A DNA stretch of 14,300 bases, taken from the UHGV virus genome UHGV-0153413; one strand, 5' to 3'. The stretch is from a virus. The position numbers and the translations under genes are program-made. The notes beneath the pieces are model-generated. The model was not told the DNA's origin. It made no database searches and worked only from the letters and a program-made list of their open reading frames with translations. The first letter of the stretch is position 1, and each line of letters starts with the position of its first letter. This document shows positions 6,071-13,918 of this stretch, piece by piece.

Positions 6071-7447
6071 TCATACGTCAGCCCCTTGTGCATATCGTCT
6101 GCCACGCGCAGCGGGCGCATTTGATGCTGTGCAAATCTGTCTGGCTTCATCCTGGTCACATGCAACAAAGTGTCCGTTGCAGAACCGCTGGTAAACCGTA
6201 CCAAGCGAGCCAAAACGGTTTTTTGTCACAATGATTTCAGCAAATGGTGCGGCGCTACTGTTCTCGTCATATACCGCTTCCCGATAGAGCATGATGATTG
6301 AGTCTGCGTCCTGTTCAATGCTTCCTGAATCACGCAAATCTGCGTTTGTCGGGCGTTTGTTTGGTCGCTTCTCAACATCGCGCGAAAGCTGACTCAGGGA
6401 GATAACTGGCGTTTTCAGGTCTTTCGCCATCGCCTTCAGGCTTCCGGAGATGTGAGCAATTGCGAGGTCGTTGCGGTCTGCTTTCGGCTTCTCAATCAGG
6501 CCAAGATAATCCGCCATGATGAGTGACAGGTTTGGATTTTCCTGTTTGTGCCGTTCTGCGATTGAGCGTATTTCTTCGACCGATAACCGCGAGGCATCGA
6601 CTACCCATACATCCAAATCTGCAAGCTGACTCATGCCGTTAGCAACACGCGCCCAGCCTTCGTCATCCATCGATGCAGGATTTCGCAGCACGCTAACCGA
6701 CATCCTCCCGGCGTTGGCAATGCTTCGCTCTGCAATCTGCAATGCGCTCATTTCCATTGAGAAAATCAATACCCCGCGCCGGACGTCAGAACCAGGAATA
6801 ACGCGGCTTGCCACGCCTTCGGCAATCTTCAGAGCCAGTTCGGTTTTCCCCATACCAGGACGAGCAGCGATTATCACCAGGTCTTCCGCGTTCATCCCTC
6901 CGGTGATGGCATCAAGTTCTTCGATTCCGGTCTTCAGGGTATCTGACTCTTCTCCGTTCCTCAGACGCCTGTCAAGCGTGTCGGTGTAGTCAGTGATGAT
7001 TTCCCCTAACCGTACAGGTTTAACCTCGTCACGGGGCTTTCTGATGGCTGAGAGACGCTTTACAAGCTCATCCATCGCCTGACTCGATGCGTCGATGGTT
7101 CCGCTCTGAATTGGTTCACGCATTTCATCCATGATTTCCAGCACCAGACGGCGGTGATAGTTATCCGCGACCATTCCGGCATATCCCTTCAGGTTTGCGG
7201 CACTCGGGCAGTTCTTACTGGTCATCAGGATTGACGTGAAATGCTCCTCTCCGCACGCCTCGGCAACCATCAGCGCATCGATTAGGTTTCTGTTTCTCGC
7301 CTGCTTGCGGATAACCTCGAAGGCTTTCCGGTAGAGCGGAATTGAAAACGCTTCCGGCTCCAGTGTTGCCAGAACGTCGCTGGCGGTTGGAGTTAATCCA
7401 CCAATCAGCAGGCCACCGATAACGCTCGCTTCGATATCCTGTCTCAT
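6071..7447 (-). CDS. DnaB-family replicative DNA helicase (P22 gene 12-like, replaces lambda P)
   Basis: 458-aa ORF with Walker A GMGKT ([15 protein letters not shown]) and DnaB-type downstream motifs. Start overlaps the O-like stop (ATGA). Confidence 0.9.
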
Positions 7448-8265
7448 GCAATCCCCCTGTCTGCAAACTTCCCTTCCCGAACTCCCGTTAACGAGTCTTC
7501 CCTCAGCAGGTAATCAAAATCTGCCGTCCAGCCCGTGTCGTTGTCTCCGAAGTAAAACGGCTTGGCCTGATGCACAAACGCCCTGACATACGCTCTGAAA
7601 CCGTCCACGTTTGGCGTTTTCAGTTGCGGGATGATTTTCTTCAGGCGGCGTTTGCGTTTCTCGTTGACCGCAACAGCATGTGGAAGTCTGTCACCGACTT
7701 CGGTGTTGTAGGCGTTCAGGAAGGATTCATAGTCGATTCGTTCTGCCTTGCGACGTTCAGGTTTAACCTGCCCATCGCCGCCCCCGTTAGGGGGTAAGGG
7801 GGTATTTGTATTTATTGTCTTTTGTATATTGTCTTTTGTGTTTAGCTGACTTGGCTTATACCCATTAGCCGACTTGGCTAATGTTTTATTAGCTGTTTTA
7901 GCTAATGTTAAGCTGTCCTGGCTAATCCACTGAGAAACCACCTTGTTCACTCCGATTTTCACGCCATCAGCAATGAGGAATTTACGCTCGATAAGCTGGC
8001 GCTTGGCAGCGCAAACATGAGTGTGATGAATACCTGTCATGGCTGCTATCTGCGTGTTTGTGAGTCGATCCATCGGCTTATTGAATCCGTATGTCTTGCG
8101 CATGATAGCGAGCATCACCTTCAGCTGCCGGACGGTTAAATCAGCCATCAGCAGACTGTCGGTAATCTCGTTAGCAACGCGCATGAAACCATCTTCGGTA
8201 TCTGCCACGCGATGCTCCACGACCTCCAGTTGAGGCCTGTAATCAGCTAACTTAACGACGCCCAT
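7444..8265 (-). CDS. Replication initiator (lambda O / P22 gene 18 family)
   Basis: 273-aa ORF. N-terminal domain [33 protein letters not shown] resembles the lambda O N-terminus. The linker region is encoded by the iterons. Confidence 0.85.
7801..7928. repeat. Origin of replication inside the O-like gene: four iterons plus an AT-rich region
   Basis: Four spaced repeats, each an internal dyad: ttagctgacttggcttata (7842-7860), ttagccgacttggctaatg (7865-7883), ttagctgttttagctaatg (7889-7907), ttaagctgtcctggctaatcc (7908-7928). AT-rich tract 7801-7841 with repeated gtcttttgt. Same architecture as lambda ori. Confidence 0.7.
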
Positions 8266-8413
8266 GTTTCACTCCTGCTTTGGCTAGTCTGTAAACACCA
8301 ACAAGGCGCTCTGCGAACGCCCTGTTATTTGCTGCGGCTACCACTAATCCCTCAGGTGAATCAGGGTGTCGAATCTCTTCTTTTTCCTGGTATTTCTTAC
8401 GACGTTTTGTCAT
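8252..8413 (-). CDS. Small basic ORF (53 aa) between cII and the O-like gene
   Basis: Hand-translated (below the ORF-track cut-off): ATG 8413..8411 with RBS GGAG at 5-nt spacing, [53 protein letters not shown]. Its stop overlaps the O-like start by 14 nt. Confidence 0.35.
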   Translation of the reverse strand: MTKRRKKYQEKEEIRHPDSPEGLVVAAANNRAFAERLVGVYRLAKAGVKHGRR

Positions 8414-8422
8414 AATTACTCC

Positions 8423-8492
8423 CGTGGATTGATCCAGTCTTTCTACATTAGGCCTCGAAGAATTCGCCGTTCTTCGGGGCTTTTTCTTTTGT
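8423..8492 (+). ncRNA. oop: Candidate oop-like antisense RNA (pO with extended -10; terminator inside the cII 3' end)
   Basis: Plus strand tTGtCATAAT extended -10 (8408-8416), then about 70 nt later a hairpin cctcgaagaa/ttcttcgggg (8452-8480) followed by cTTTTTcTTTT. Antisense to the cII 3' end, as for lambda oop. Confidence 0.45.
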
Positions 8493-8726
8493 CAGCATTC
8501 TGGCTACTTGCTTAGCCAGTTCCGCCAACTCCTCGTCTTCAACACCCCATTCAAGAACAGCCAGAAGCATTCCCATTTTGGGGATGAAGCTGTCTTTCCA
8601 TCGCGAAATTTGCGATTCATTAACCCCTAACGCGTCGGCAACCTTTCGCTGACCACGTACAGCAATTCGATTCAGGATGTTGCTTGTAATTGCATTCGCT
8701 TTCTTGCGAGTACTTGTAAGTTGCAT
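8448..8726 (-). CDS. cII: Transcriptional activator CII
   Basis: ESQISRWKDSFIPKMGMLLAVLEWGVEDEELAELAKQVARML closely matches lambda CII (QISRWK...SMLLAVLEWGV). ATG 8726..8724 preceded by AAGGAAATACTTACAT, as in lambda. The 121-aa track ORF is an upstream extension. Confidence 0.85.
   Translation of the reverse strand: MQLTSTRKKANAITSNILNRIAVRGQRKVADALGVNESQISRWKDSFIPKMGMLLAVLEWGVEDEELAELAKQVARMLTKEKAPKNGEFFEA
8681..8714 (+). promoter_or_regulatory. Candidate pRE with CII-binding direct repeats TTGC-N6-TTGC
   Basis: TTGCttgtaaTTGC at 8681-8694, inside the cII 5' coding region on the opposite strand, followed 14 nt later by a weak -10-like AGTACT. Orientation is toward cI through cro. Confidence 0.4.
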
Positions 8727-12703: not shown

Positions 12704-13411
12704 ATGAATTTGAATAAATTCGACGAGCCATTCAGCCCTGAAGATATCGAATGGCGAATACAGCAAAGCGGTAAAACACGCGATGGCAAGGTGTGGGCTA
12801 TGGTGCTGGCTTATGTCACGAACCGGGCAATCATGAAGCGCCTGGACGATGTTTGCGGCAAAGCAGGATGGCGCAATGAATACCGCGATATTCCCAACAA
12901 CGGCGGAGTTGAATGCGGCATATCAATCAAGATTGATTCCGAATGGGTAACCAAATGGGATGCCGCTGAAAACACGCAGGTAGAAGCCGTCAAAGGTGGT
13001 CGTTCCGGTGCAATGAAGCGCGCTGCCGTTCAGTGGGGAATCGGTCGGTATCTGTATAACCTTGAGGAAGGTTTCGCACAAACATCTCTCGATAAAAAGC
13101 AGGGGTGGCACAGGGCAAAACTGAAGGATGGAACAGGATTTTACTGGTCCCCTCCATCGCTGCCGGGCTGGGCAATGCCAGTATCAGATAACAAATCACC
13201 ACCAGAAAATACCAACCAGAAATCTCCATCGGTTGACTGCGAACAAATCCTGAAAGACTTCAGCGATTATGCATCGAAAGAAACTGACAAGAAAAAACTC
13301 ATCGAGCGTTATCAGCGTGACTGGCAATTAATGGCTGGCAATGAGGATGCGCAGGCTAAATGCGTTCAGGTAATGAACATCAGAGTTAACGAGCTAAAAC
13401 AGGCGGCATAA
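12704..13411 (+). CDS. Putative single-strand annealing protein (Rad52-like family)
   Basis: 235-aa ORF with RBS GAGGTGA. Sits where lambda has bet, immediately upstream of an SSB gene. N-terminal region (WAMVLAYVTNRAIMKRLDDVCGKAGW...GISIK) is consistent with Rad52-like recombinases as recalled; not verified. Confidence 0.55.
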   Translation: MNLNKFDEPFSPEDIEWRIQQSGKTRDGKVWAMVLAYVTNRAIMKRLDDVCGKAGWRNEYRDIPNNGGVECGISIKIDSEWVTKWDAAENTQVEAVKGGRSGAMKRAAVQWGIGRYLYNLEEGFAQTSLDKKQGWHRAKLKDGTGFYWSPPSLPGWAMPVSDNKSPPENTNQKSPSVDCEQILKDFSDYASKETDKKKLIERYQRDWQLMAGNEDAQAKCVQVMNIRVNELKQAA

Positions 13412-13918
13412 ATGGCAAGCAGAGGCGTAAATAAGGTGATTATCCTTGGTCGGGTAGGACAAGACCCGGAAGTTCGATACTCACCATCAGGAACAGCGTT
13501 CGCTAACCTGACAATAGCCACGTCAGAACAATGGCGAGATAAAAATACTGGCGAGCAAAAGGAATTGACTGAATGGCATCGTGTTGCTGTATCCGGGAAA
13601 CTGGCTGAGGTCGTGGGGCAGTATGTGAAAAAAGGTGATCAGATTTATTTCGAGGGAATGCTGAGAACCAGAAAGTGGAAAGACCAGTCAGGGCAAGACC
13701 GTTACACAACCGAGGTTCATGTCGGAATTAATGGCGTGATGCAAATGCTTGGCGGCATTGGCGACAGCAAACAACAAGCAGCCAGCAGGCAATCACAGAA
13801 GCCACAGCAGCAATCATCACCAGCACAACACAACGAACCTCCGATGGATTTTGACGACGATATACCCTTTGCACCAGTAACTCTCCCCTTCCCTCGTCAC
13901 GCTATTCACGCAATTTAA
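13412..13918 (+). CDS. ssb: Single-stranded DNA-binding protein (SSB) with a 15-aa extension past the DDDIPF motif
   Basis: OB-fold N-terminus [34 protein letters not shown]...W(H)RV, Gln/Pro-rich linker and acidic tip MDFDDDIPF. The ORF then continues [15 protein letters not shown] before the stop. Confidence 0.85.

Follow-up and report, generated by a model that had tools for sequence, protein, structure and literature searches.

The segment at positions 7781–7926 of the 14.3-kb window (the window being the whole stretch of DNA that was analyzed, to which all coordinates refer unless another genome is named) very probably serves a lambdoid prophage as its vegetative (theta-mode) replication origin and lies within the prophage's own initiator gene. 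Five lines of observation converge on this assignment: the anatomy of the segment, its homology, its collinearity with the origins of lambda and P22, its conservation at the level of the DNA and the covariation of the modules that surround it. The elements of the origin and of the two genes that belong to it are as follows, listed in the direction of transcription of the initiator gene.

7444–8265, minus strand: O-family replication initiator gene (273 aa); the whole origin lies inside it
7927–8211, minus strand: N-terminal DNA-binding domain of the initiator (aa 19–113, Phage_rep_O / phage_O_Nterm), with the TGIHHTH motif (His80, His83) specific to TTAGC-type origins
7908–7926, minus strand: iteron I1, gene sense ATTAGCCAGGACAGCTTAA; left arm perfect, right arm degenerate; codes for ISQDSL
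7888–7906, minus strand: iteron I2, gene sense ATTAGCTAAAACAGCTAAT; perfect 6+6 dyad; codes for LAKTAN
7864–7882, minus strand: iteron I3, gene sense ATTAGCCAAGTCGGCTAAT; perfect dyad, 6+6 to 7+7; codes for LAKSAN
7841–7859, minus strand: iteron I4, gene sense ATAAGCCAAGTCAGCTAAA; left arm degenerate; codes for (Y)KPSQLN
7830–7840, minus strand: CACAAAAGACA box, directly abutting iteron 4; lambda, P22, ES18 and every related locus examined have it in this place; information content 1.86 bits per column
7803–7840, minus strand: AT-rich tract (38 nt), A-rich in gene sense, with a GC fraction of about 0.2; presumed DNA-unwinding element
7781–7802, minus strand: GC-rich C5/G5 element, gene sense CCCCCTTACCCCCTAACGGGGG; short CCCCC/GGGGG inverted repeat; codes for PLPPNGG
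7447–7773, minus strand: C-terminal domain of the initiator (about aa 165–273), presumed to recruit the helicase
6071–7447, minus strand: DnaB-family replicative helicase gene (458 aa), the start of which overlaps the initiator stop codon

The open reading frame that holds the origin encodes an O-family initiator, as a preliminary description of this DNA had proposed: residues 19–113 match Pfam Phage_rep_O (5.8e-33) and residues 21–113 match NCBIfam TIGR01610, phage_O_Nterm ('phage replication protein O, N-terminal domain'; 5e-28). The C-terminal 123 residues matched no Pfam or NCBIfam family, and a sequence search of the PDB with the initiator returned no relative with a solved structure. The neighboring helicase had been called DnaB-like rather than lambda P-like, which is confirmed by matches to DnaB_C (9.5e-78), the DnaB N-domain (4.5e-13) and TIGR00665 (3e-100) and by its 90% identity (414/458 residues) to P22 gp12. 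The genes are ordered as a cI-like repressor (plus strand), cro and cII (both minus strand), a 53-aa ORF, the O-like initiator and the helicase; beyond the helicase lie NinB, NinG, a phosphatase, Q, holin and Rz, and a Rad52-like recombinase and an SSB lie on the opposite side. The region is a lambdoid early region, and the origin is located in its early rightward operon downstream of cro–cII, a position from which activation of the origin by transcription would be possible. The closest relatives of the window include both P22-like podoviruses (Lederbergvirus) and HK97-like siphoviruses; because its gene content comprises early, nin, Q and lysis genes and no virion genes, neither the virion type nor the backbone, which the preliminary description had called lambda-like, can be assigned from it.

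The iteron array consists of four 19-bp repeats with an internal dyad of the ATTAGC-N7-GCTAAT type and spans 7841–7926. A repeat finder recovered it as a four-copy family (7844–7859, 7867–7882, 7891–7906 and 7911–7926) with a plus-strand spacing of 23/24/20. Read in the direction of the gene, the iterons start at positions 341, 361, 385 and 408 of the initiator gene, giving a start spacing of 20/24/23, or about two helical turns, and they fill initiator codons 114–142, in the interval that separates the DNA-binding domain from the C-terminal one. When three mismatches are allowed, the consensus 19-mer has three matches in the 14.3-kb window where 0.01 are expected (a count of three was reached in 0/200 shuffles), and the dyad pattern TTAGC-N7-GCTAA, with at most one mismatch, recovers all four iterons within 86 bp. 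Searches with the consensus and with the dyad pattern revealed no second iteron cluster in the 14.3-kb window. A candidate fifth iteron at 8512–8528, inside cII and one mismatch from the dyad, was set aside as a probable chance match (0.47 such matches are expected per window), and a 'terminator-like' call at iteron 3 on the plus strand was dismissed as an artefact of a dyad followed by a T-rich tract. An Rfam scan of the window at gathering thresholds gave no match.

Directly downstream of the last iteron is the AT-rich tract, which begins with the CACAAAAGACA box that is also found in lambda. The tract is strand-asymmetric (64% T on the plus strand, equivalent to 64% A in gene sense) and has a GC fraction of 0.19–0.24; with a GC fraction of 0.19, positions 7803–7844 rank second lowest among the 42-nt windows of the 14.3 kb, and positions 7801–7842 are among the lowest 0.5% of windows by GC. 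The GC-rich element that follows (7781–7802) occupies the place of lambda's right-hand inverted repeat and adjoins the junction zone of the natural chimeras considered below. The four dyad iterons and adjacent AT-rich tract that the preliminary description had placed in an O-like coding sequence are thus found where it had put them, by repeat finder, dyad search and GC windows alike.

That a replication origin can lie within the gene for its initiator is known from textbook accounts of lambda, and the layout of the lambda origin is that of the window: it is found in the central part of an O-family gene and comprises four dyad iterons of about 19 bp, spaced 20/24/23, followed by the CACAAAAGACA box and an A-rich tract. 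The ori iterons of the lambda reference record are at 39034, 39054, 39078 and 39101, a start spacing equal to the one measured here. The components that fill this layout differ. The N-domains of lambda and the window fall in one Pfam and TIGRFAM family, yet are only about 38% identical; the lambda iteron arms are TCCCTC/GAGGGA rather than TTAGC/GCTAA; the lambda C-domain is unrelated; and lambda uses the P loader for host DnaB, whereas the window encodes a phage DnaB-family helicase. When eight O-family genes (from the window, P22, lambda, ES18, EhrS49, RCIP0098, PhiR70_1 and phiES15) were anchored on CACAAAAGA, seven of the eight aligned base by base and had their four iterons in a common register, the exception being phiES15, in which the gap between the second and third iterons is wider. 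The tract after the last iteron is 57–64% A, with a GC fraction of 0.21–0.33, in 8/8 of these genes. Both the lambda mechanism and the principle of an ori in gene O have been described (PMC7466680, PMC8022706).

The P22 reference record carries a rep_origin feature in gene 18 that is collinear with the repeats and AT tract of the window, and the annotation of that feature reads 'similar to phage lambda'; the P22 and HK97 origins appear to have been assigned by similarity to lambda. The comparison with the lambda and P22 origins that had been recommended for this DNA shows the repeats and AT tract to match, base by base, the order of the iterons annotated in lambda and of the P22 rep_origin. 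P22 also shares the gene order (orf48-like gene, initiator, DnaB-like helicase), the iteron register and an identical AT-rich tract, its CCCCC..GGGGG element and C-domain are very similar, and the C-terminal half of the window's initiator is far closer to its P22 counterpart than the N-domain is. On the other hand, the P22 iterons are TTTACC-N5-GGTAAA, not TTAGC-N7-GCTAA, and the P22 N-domain is 39% identical to that of the window and has A/K where all TTAGC types carry H80/H83. Because the iterons and N-domains differ, the P22 and window origins are predicted to differ in specificity. The proposal that this is a P22-type replication module therefore stands for the helicase and the initiator C-domain and falls for the N-domain and the iterons, which have the specificity of HK97 gp54; a 'P22 origin' was rejected, as far as specificity is concerned, on the same grounds.

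HK97 provides the closest match throughout. The initiator is identical in 272/273 residues to HK97 gp54 (gene O, 'similar to P22 gp18') and the helicase in 456/458 residues to HK97 gp55 (gene P, 'similar to DnaB'), and the 176-bp origin segment at 7770–7945 is identical in 176/176 nucleotides to HK97 30188–30363. HK97 gp54/gp55 is the same element as the module in the window, with only a handful of synonymous or near-synonymous differences, and its iterons and N-domain mark the origin specificity as HK97-type, not P22-type. The replication module is already known, in that its sequence has been public since the HK97 genome. The 176-bp segment is also 98–99% identical in HK446, HK544, mEp213, ST104, phage 2851, YYZ-2008, several Stx2 phages and Salmonella phages, and the initiator gene (at least 80% coverage) is present in 395/5426 complete E. 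coli genomes (about 7%). The module also goes by another name: Llarena et al. (2021) described Eru2A/Eru2B, from the Stx2c prophage carried by E. coli O157:H7 TW14359, as a non-lambdoid replication module, in a paper in which iterons or an origin are not mentioned (PMC8044961). The window's initiator matches Eru2A in 272/273 residues, its helicase matches Eru2B in 458/458, and the iteron arrays are identical. The HK97 GenBank record has no origin feature, the RefSeq annotation that we examined is likewise without one, and a literature search, to which the HK97 genome paper (PubMed 10860721) was external, found no paper describing or testing HK97-type iterons and no replication assay or other experimental evidence for this specificity.

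As the iterons lie within a coding sequence, they might be a coding repeat only, the duplication of LAKxAN providing a flexible interdomain linker and the DNA having no role in cis; the preliminary description, too, had the repeats encode a repetitive linker of the initiator. Two iterons do share a reading frame, I2 (LAKTAN; codons TTA GCT AAA ACA GCT AAT) and I3 (LAKSAN; codons TTA GCC AAG TCG GCT AAT), and the region is situated between two protein domains. However, I1 (ISQDSL; codons ATT AGC CAG GAC AGC TTA) and I4 (KPSQLN; codons (TA)T AAG CCA AGT CAG CTA AAC) use the other two frames, making three frames in all, neither 20 nor 23, two of the spacings, is divisible by three, and the geometry of the array is that of lambda, whose iterons code for unrelated peptides. 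Conservation was assessed in 80 related viral loci that were picked solely by N-domain peptide patterns, not by DNA, and whose N-domains are 57–100% identical to that of the window. The array is present in 80/80 of them, as four TTAGC-N7-GCTAA sites with 20/24/23 spacing and then AACACAAAAGA (a few have a fifth TTAGC-N7-GCTAA site), so the lack of conservation in homologous initiator genes that had been named in advance as an argument against an origin is not what was found. Information content, computed over 30 distinct diverged sequences, is 1.88 bits per column in the iteron arms, a value subject to some ascertainment bias from locating the arrays by motif search, although a limited one, as the loci were chosen by protein and 81/81 sequences have the array. 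It is 1.86 bits per column in the box after I4, 1.33 in the iteron centers, 1.17 in the inter-iteron spacers, 0.82 in the upstream N-domain coding sequence (117 nt) and 0.43 in the downstream coding sequence. At third-codon positions, the arm columns reach 1.98 bits per column, against 0.53 upstream in the conserved N-domain, and the arms are fixed for TTA, a rare Leu codon, and for GCT (Ala). Because the iterons are read in three frames and the third-codon positions of the arms are near-invariant, this pattern indicates that selection acts on the DNA itself and not on a peptide repeat. The frame analysis effectively refutes a purely coding repeat, which we consider extremely improbable; what survives of the linker is the common LAKxAN frame of I2 and I3, and with I1 and I4 in other frames the linker is a by-product.

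Acceptance of the array as a DNA signal leaves the nature of that signal to be considered. The iterons could bind the initiator in a mainly regulatory capacity (autoregulation, transcriptional roadblock, handcuffing copy control, exclusion or incompatibility), with opening and loading taking place elsewhere. It is general knowledge that in iteron plasmids the same repeats serve both control and initiation, and sequence alone is no proof of melting at 7803–7840. Ectopic copies of the lambda ori iterons, furthermore, inhibit lambda replication (PMC3349717). Against these points, a role of this type would add to origin function, not replace it, and no second iteron cluster is present in the 14.3-kb window. 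In lambda, melting at the A-rich tract next to the iterons is established, and in the window the asymmetric AT-rich tract and CACAAAAGACA box abut iteron 4 exactly as they do in lambda; we regard a mainly regulatory array as improbable. The segment could also be an inactive relic in a defective prophage, origin-like in appearance and no longer firing. Many E. coli prophages are cryptic, as is generally known, and none of the complete E. coli genomes was found to cover at least 80% of the window, which makes the element a mosaic, and the prophage as a whole may not be intact. The initiator and helicase ORFs are, nevertheless, full length and 99–100% identical to those of the plaque-forming phages HK97, HK446, mEp213 and phage 2851, and the 176-bp origin segment is 100% identical to that of HK97, so that a relic is very improbable, more so than a regulatory array.

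Returning to the preferred reading, a vegetative origin of the lambda kind, natural chimeras provide information on how its parts are combined. In Salmonella phage P6, a window-type C-domain follows the N-domain and iterons of P22, and the join falls somewhere between the start of the AT tract and the end of the GC-rich element, a stretch in which both parents are near-identical. ES18 combines the N-domain and iterons of lambda with a primase-helicase and a C-domain unrelated to lambda's, Cronobacter phage phiES15 and one of the related loci (L061) have TTAGC-type iterons with a lambda-P-like loader, and Stx2_EH0505 and S.Inf 5-2 carry the window-type C-domain on a non-O N-domain with different internal repeats of its own. 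Across loci, C-domain type corresponds to the type of helicase or loader encoded downstream, but the correspondence is not graded: the window-type C-domain precedes the window-type helicase, and the lambda-type C-domain precedes the P-like loader (L061). Compared at the sequence level, these loci show the iterons traveling with the N-domain and the C-domain tracking the helicase or loader.

Within the N-domain, His80 and His83 of the TGIHHTH motif are invariant in 32/32 TTAGC-type N-domains, and the corresponding positions are A/L/P and K/R in 5/5 N-domains of other iteron types. Specificity would reside in the iteron arms (TTAGC/GCTAA) paired with the N-domain, with His80 and His83 as candidate determinants, presumed to lie in a recognition helix. 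The preliminary description had held that the iteron sequence defines ori specificity, and both the covariation of arms with N-domain and the natural chimeras fit that view. In lambda, iteron recognition falls to the N-domain and recruitment of the helicase machinery to the C-domain (PMC8022706, PMC7466680); by analogy, the two domains of the initiator in the window may divide their work in the same way. A broader proposal, which we put forward tentatively and consider rather doubtful as a whole, is that the TTAGC-N7-GCTAA iterons and the TGIHHTH N-domain form a distinct, experimentally uncharacterized specificity class that is swapped as one cassette, by recombination between the CACAAAAGACA box/AT tract and the GC-rich element, against at least four C-domain/helicase-loader cassettes, among them DnaB-like helicases of the window/P22 type, more distant DnaB-like helicases and a lambda-P-like loader, in which case the Stx2c 'Eru2' phages would use a canonical lambdoid origin.

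On the model of lambda, initiator binding, melting, helicase recruitment and origin firing may be envisaged as a single pathway. Dimers of the O-family initiator would bind the four dyad iterons through their N-domains, and the fixed 20/24/23-bp phasing would give a wrapped 'O-some'. Torsional stress and rightward early transcription from the cro-side promoter would then melt the A-rich/T-rich tract at 7803–7840, starting at the CACAAAAGACA box. The initiator C-domain would bring in the phage DnaB-family helicase, as is thought for P22 gp18/gp12, in place of the hijacking of host DnaB by lambda P, and host primase and Pol III would take over. It may also be speculated that the perfectly palindromic inner iterons, once melted, form ssDNA hairpins that trigger OLD- or Lamassu-type defenses; ssDNA hairpins have recently been proposed as an OLD/Lamassu trigger, and HK97 is reported to be OLD-sensitive (bioRxiv 10.64898/2026.07.10.737580).

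The origins of RK2 (TrfA), pSC101 (RepA) and R6K (pi) resemble that of the window in having repeated initiator sites beside an AT-rich unwinding element. In iteron plasmids, however, the repeats are direct repeats without an internal dyad, are bound by monomers and lie outside the rep gene, usually with DnaA boxes, and we know of no homology between the initiators of RK2, pSC101 or R6K and the initiator described here. The Stx phages 933W and P27, like the window, have lambdoid origins inside gene O; they have six lambda-type iterons, for which binding by O has been shown experimentally (Kozlowska et al. 2020, PMC7466680), and an O/P pair, as opposed to the four iterons of another sequence and the DnaB-type helicase of the window.

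The origin is of the ordinary, textbook lambdoid kind and, as a discovery, matters little. What is added is the demonstration of constraint at the level of the DNA, the connection of Eru2 to the HK97/lambdoid origins, and a definition of the HK97-type origin to the base, with its consensus and coordinates; the HK97 record and the RefSeq annotation examined leave this origin unannotated. The 'Eru2' module of Stx2c-converting phages is that of HK97, and its origin is a canonical one of the lambda type, a point of relevance because Stx production depends on phage replication (PMC7466680). Finally, the comparative loci amount to a natural experiment on initiator–iteron specificity, in which His80/His83 and the sequence of the TTAGC arms constitute a directly testable pair.

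In the window array (7841-7926) and in 30 diverged arrays, the outer members of the four dyad iterons inside the initiator gene, I1 and I4, are half-degenerate. The deviating arm is in each case the inner one: in I1 the right arm, which reads GCTTA, GCGAA or GCAAA, and in I4 the left arm, which reads TAAGC or TTCGC. The outer arms of I1 and I4, together with both inner iterons, remain canonical. Because the inner arms of the two outer iterons are degenerate and the rest is canonical, the array as a whole has a higher-order pseudo-symmetry, which is kept across relatives.

The features that lie beside the array and upstream of the initiator gene are as follows.

7781-7802, minus strand: C5/G5 element with the sense sequence CCCCCTTACCCCCTAACGGGGG, including a 5-bp inverted repeat and encoding PLPPNGG
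8252-8413, minus strand: 53-aa ORF overlapping the initiator gene start, the counterpart of HK97 gp53
within 8404-8492, plus strand: -10-like hexamer CATAAT, part of the oop-like unit
8450-8482, plus strand: strong 14-bp hairpin followed by a T run, in the oop-like unit

Elements similar to the C5/G5 element occupy the equivalent place in P22, in phiES15 and in the chimeric initiators with a non-O N-terminal domain described below, and lambda has its right-hand inverted repeat at this position. The element may be a signal in the DNA or simply a run of Pro/Gly codons. Further upstream, the 3′ end of cII is faced by a putative oop-like antisense RNA unit (8404-8492, plus strand). The 5′ end of this unit (GTGGATTGATCCAGT) resembles that of lambda oop, and the annotated oop promoter and terminator of P22 align with the same region; an Rfam scan of the window returned no match for the unit. 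The putative oop promoter (~8404-8415) is located just upstream of the 53-aa ORF, which matched no Pfam family and is equivalent in position to P22 orf48.

The C-terminal domain of the window initiator also occurs, at 95-98% identity, in the initiators of the Stx2a phage Stx2_EH0505 and the Salmonella phage S.Inf 5-2 (chimeric loci L005:1443-2390 and L006:1440-2360). Their N-terminal domains are unrelated, non-O domains with internal repeats of their own, comprising CCGCACATGA-like units that encode AHEAAQTTAH in one chimera and a ~33 bp direct repeat (TCACCCGATGAACCATGCGATAAACCATCCGAT) in the other. Both initiators presumably combine another type of origin with the helicase-recruiting domain that the window also has.

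Two kinds of insertion were observed in relatives. The DnaB-like helicase of three related loci (L025:3319-5343; also L026 and L058) carries a 338-aa in-frame insertion in its P-loop, after GMGK201, that is absent from the window helicase. It begins with Ala, ends in ...VTHN|T and contains the LAGLIDADG-like motifs LLGDGS and LLETDGW; it has the appearance of an intein that includes a homing endonuclease. Separately, in several Stx phages with the module (e.g. AP012538, NC_049945 and MG986485) the initiator-helicase stretch is interrupted by ~0.66 kb of additional DNA that carries an HNH endonuclease annotation, so that the match of these records falls into two pieces.

On the leftward-operon side, the window carries a recombination module that is neither lambda Red nor P22 Erf, a further sign that the element is a mosaic.

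12704-13918, plus strand: Rad52/Rad22-family annealase, then SSB

The 'Eru2' replication type of Stx phages has been classed as non-lambdoid, in a description that reports an N-terminal identity of only 24% to the O protein of 933W and makes no mention of the origin (PMC8044961). The present comparison identifies Eru2 as the module of HK97 gp54/gp55, whose iteron origin is of the canonical lambda type.
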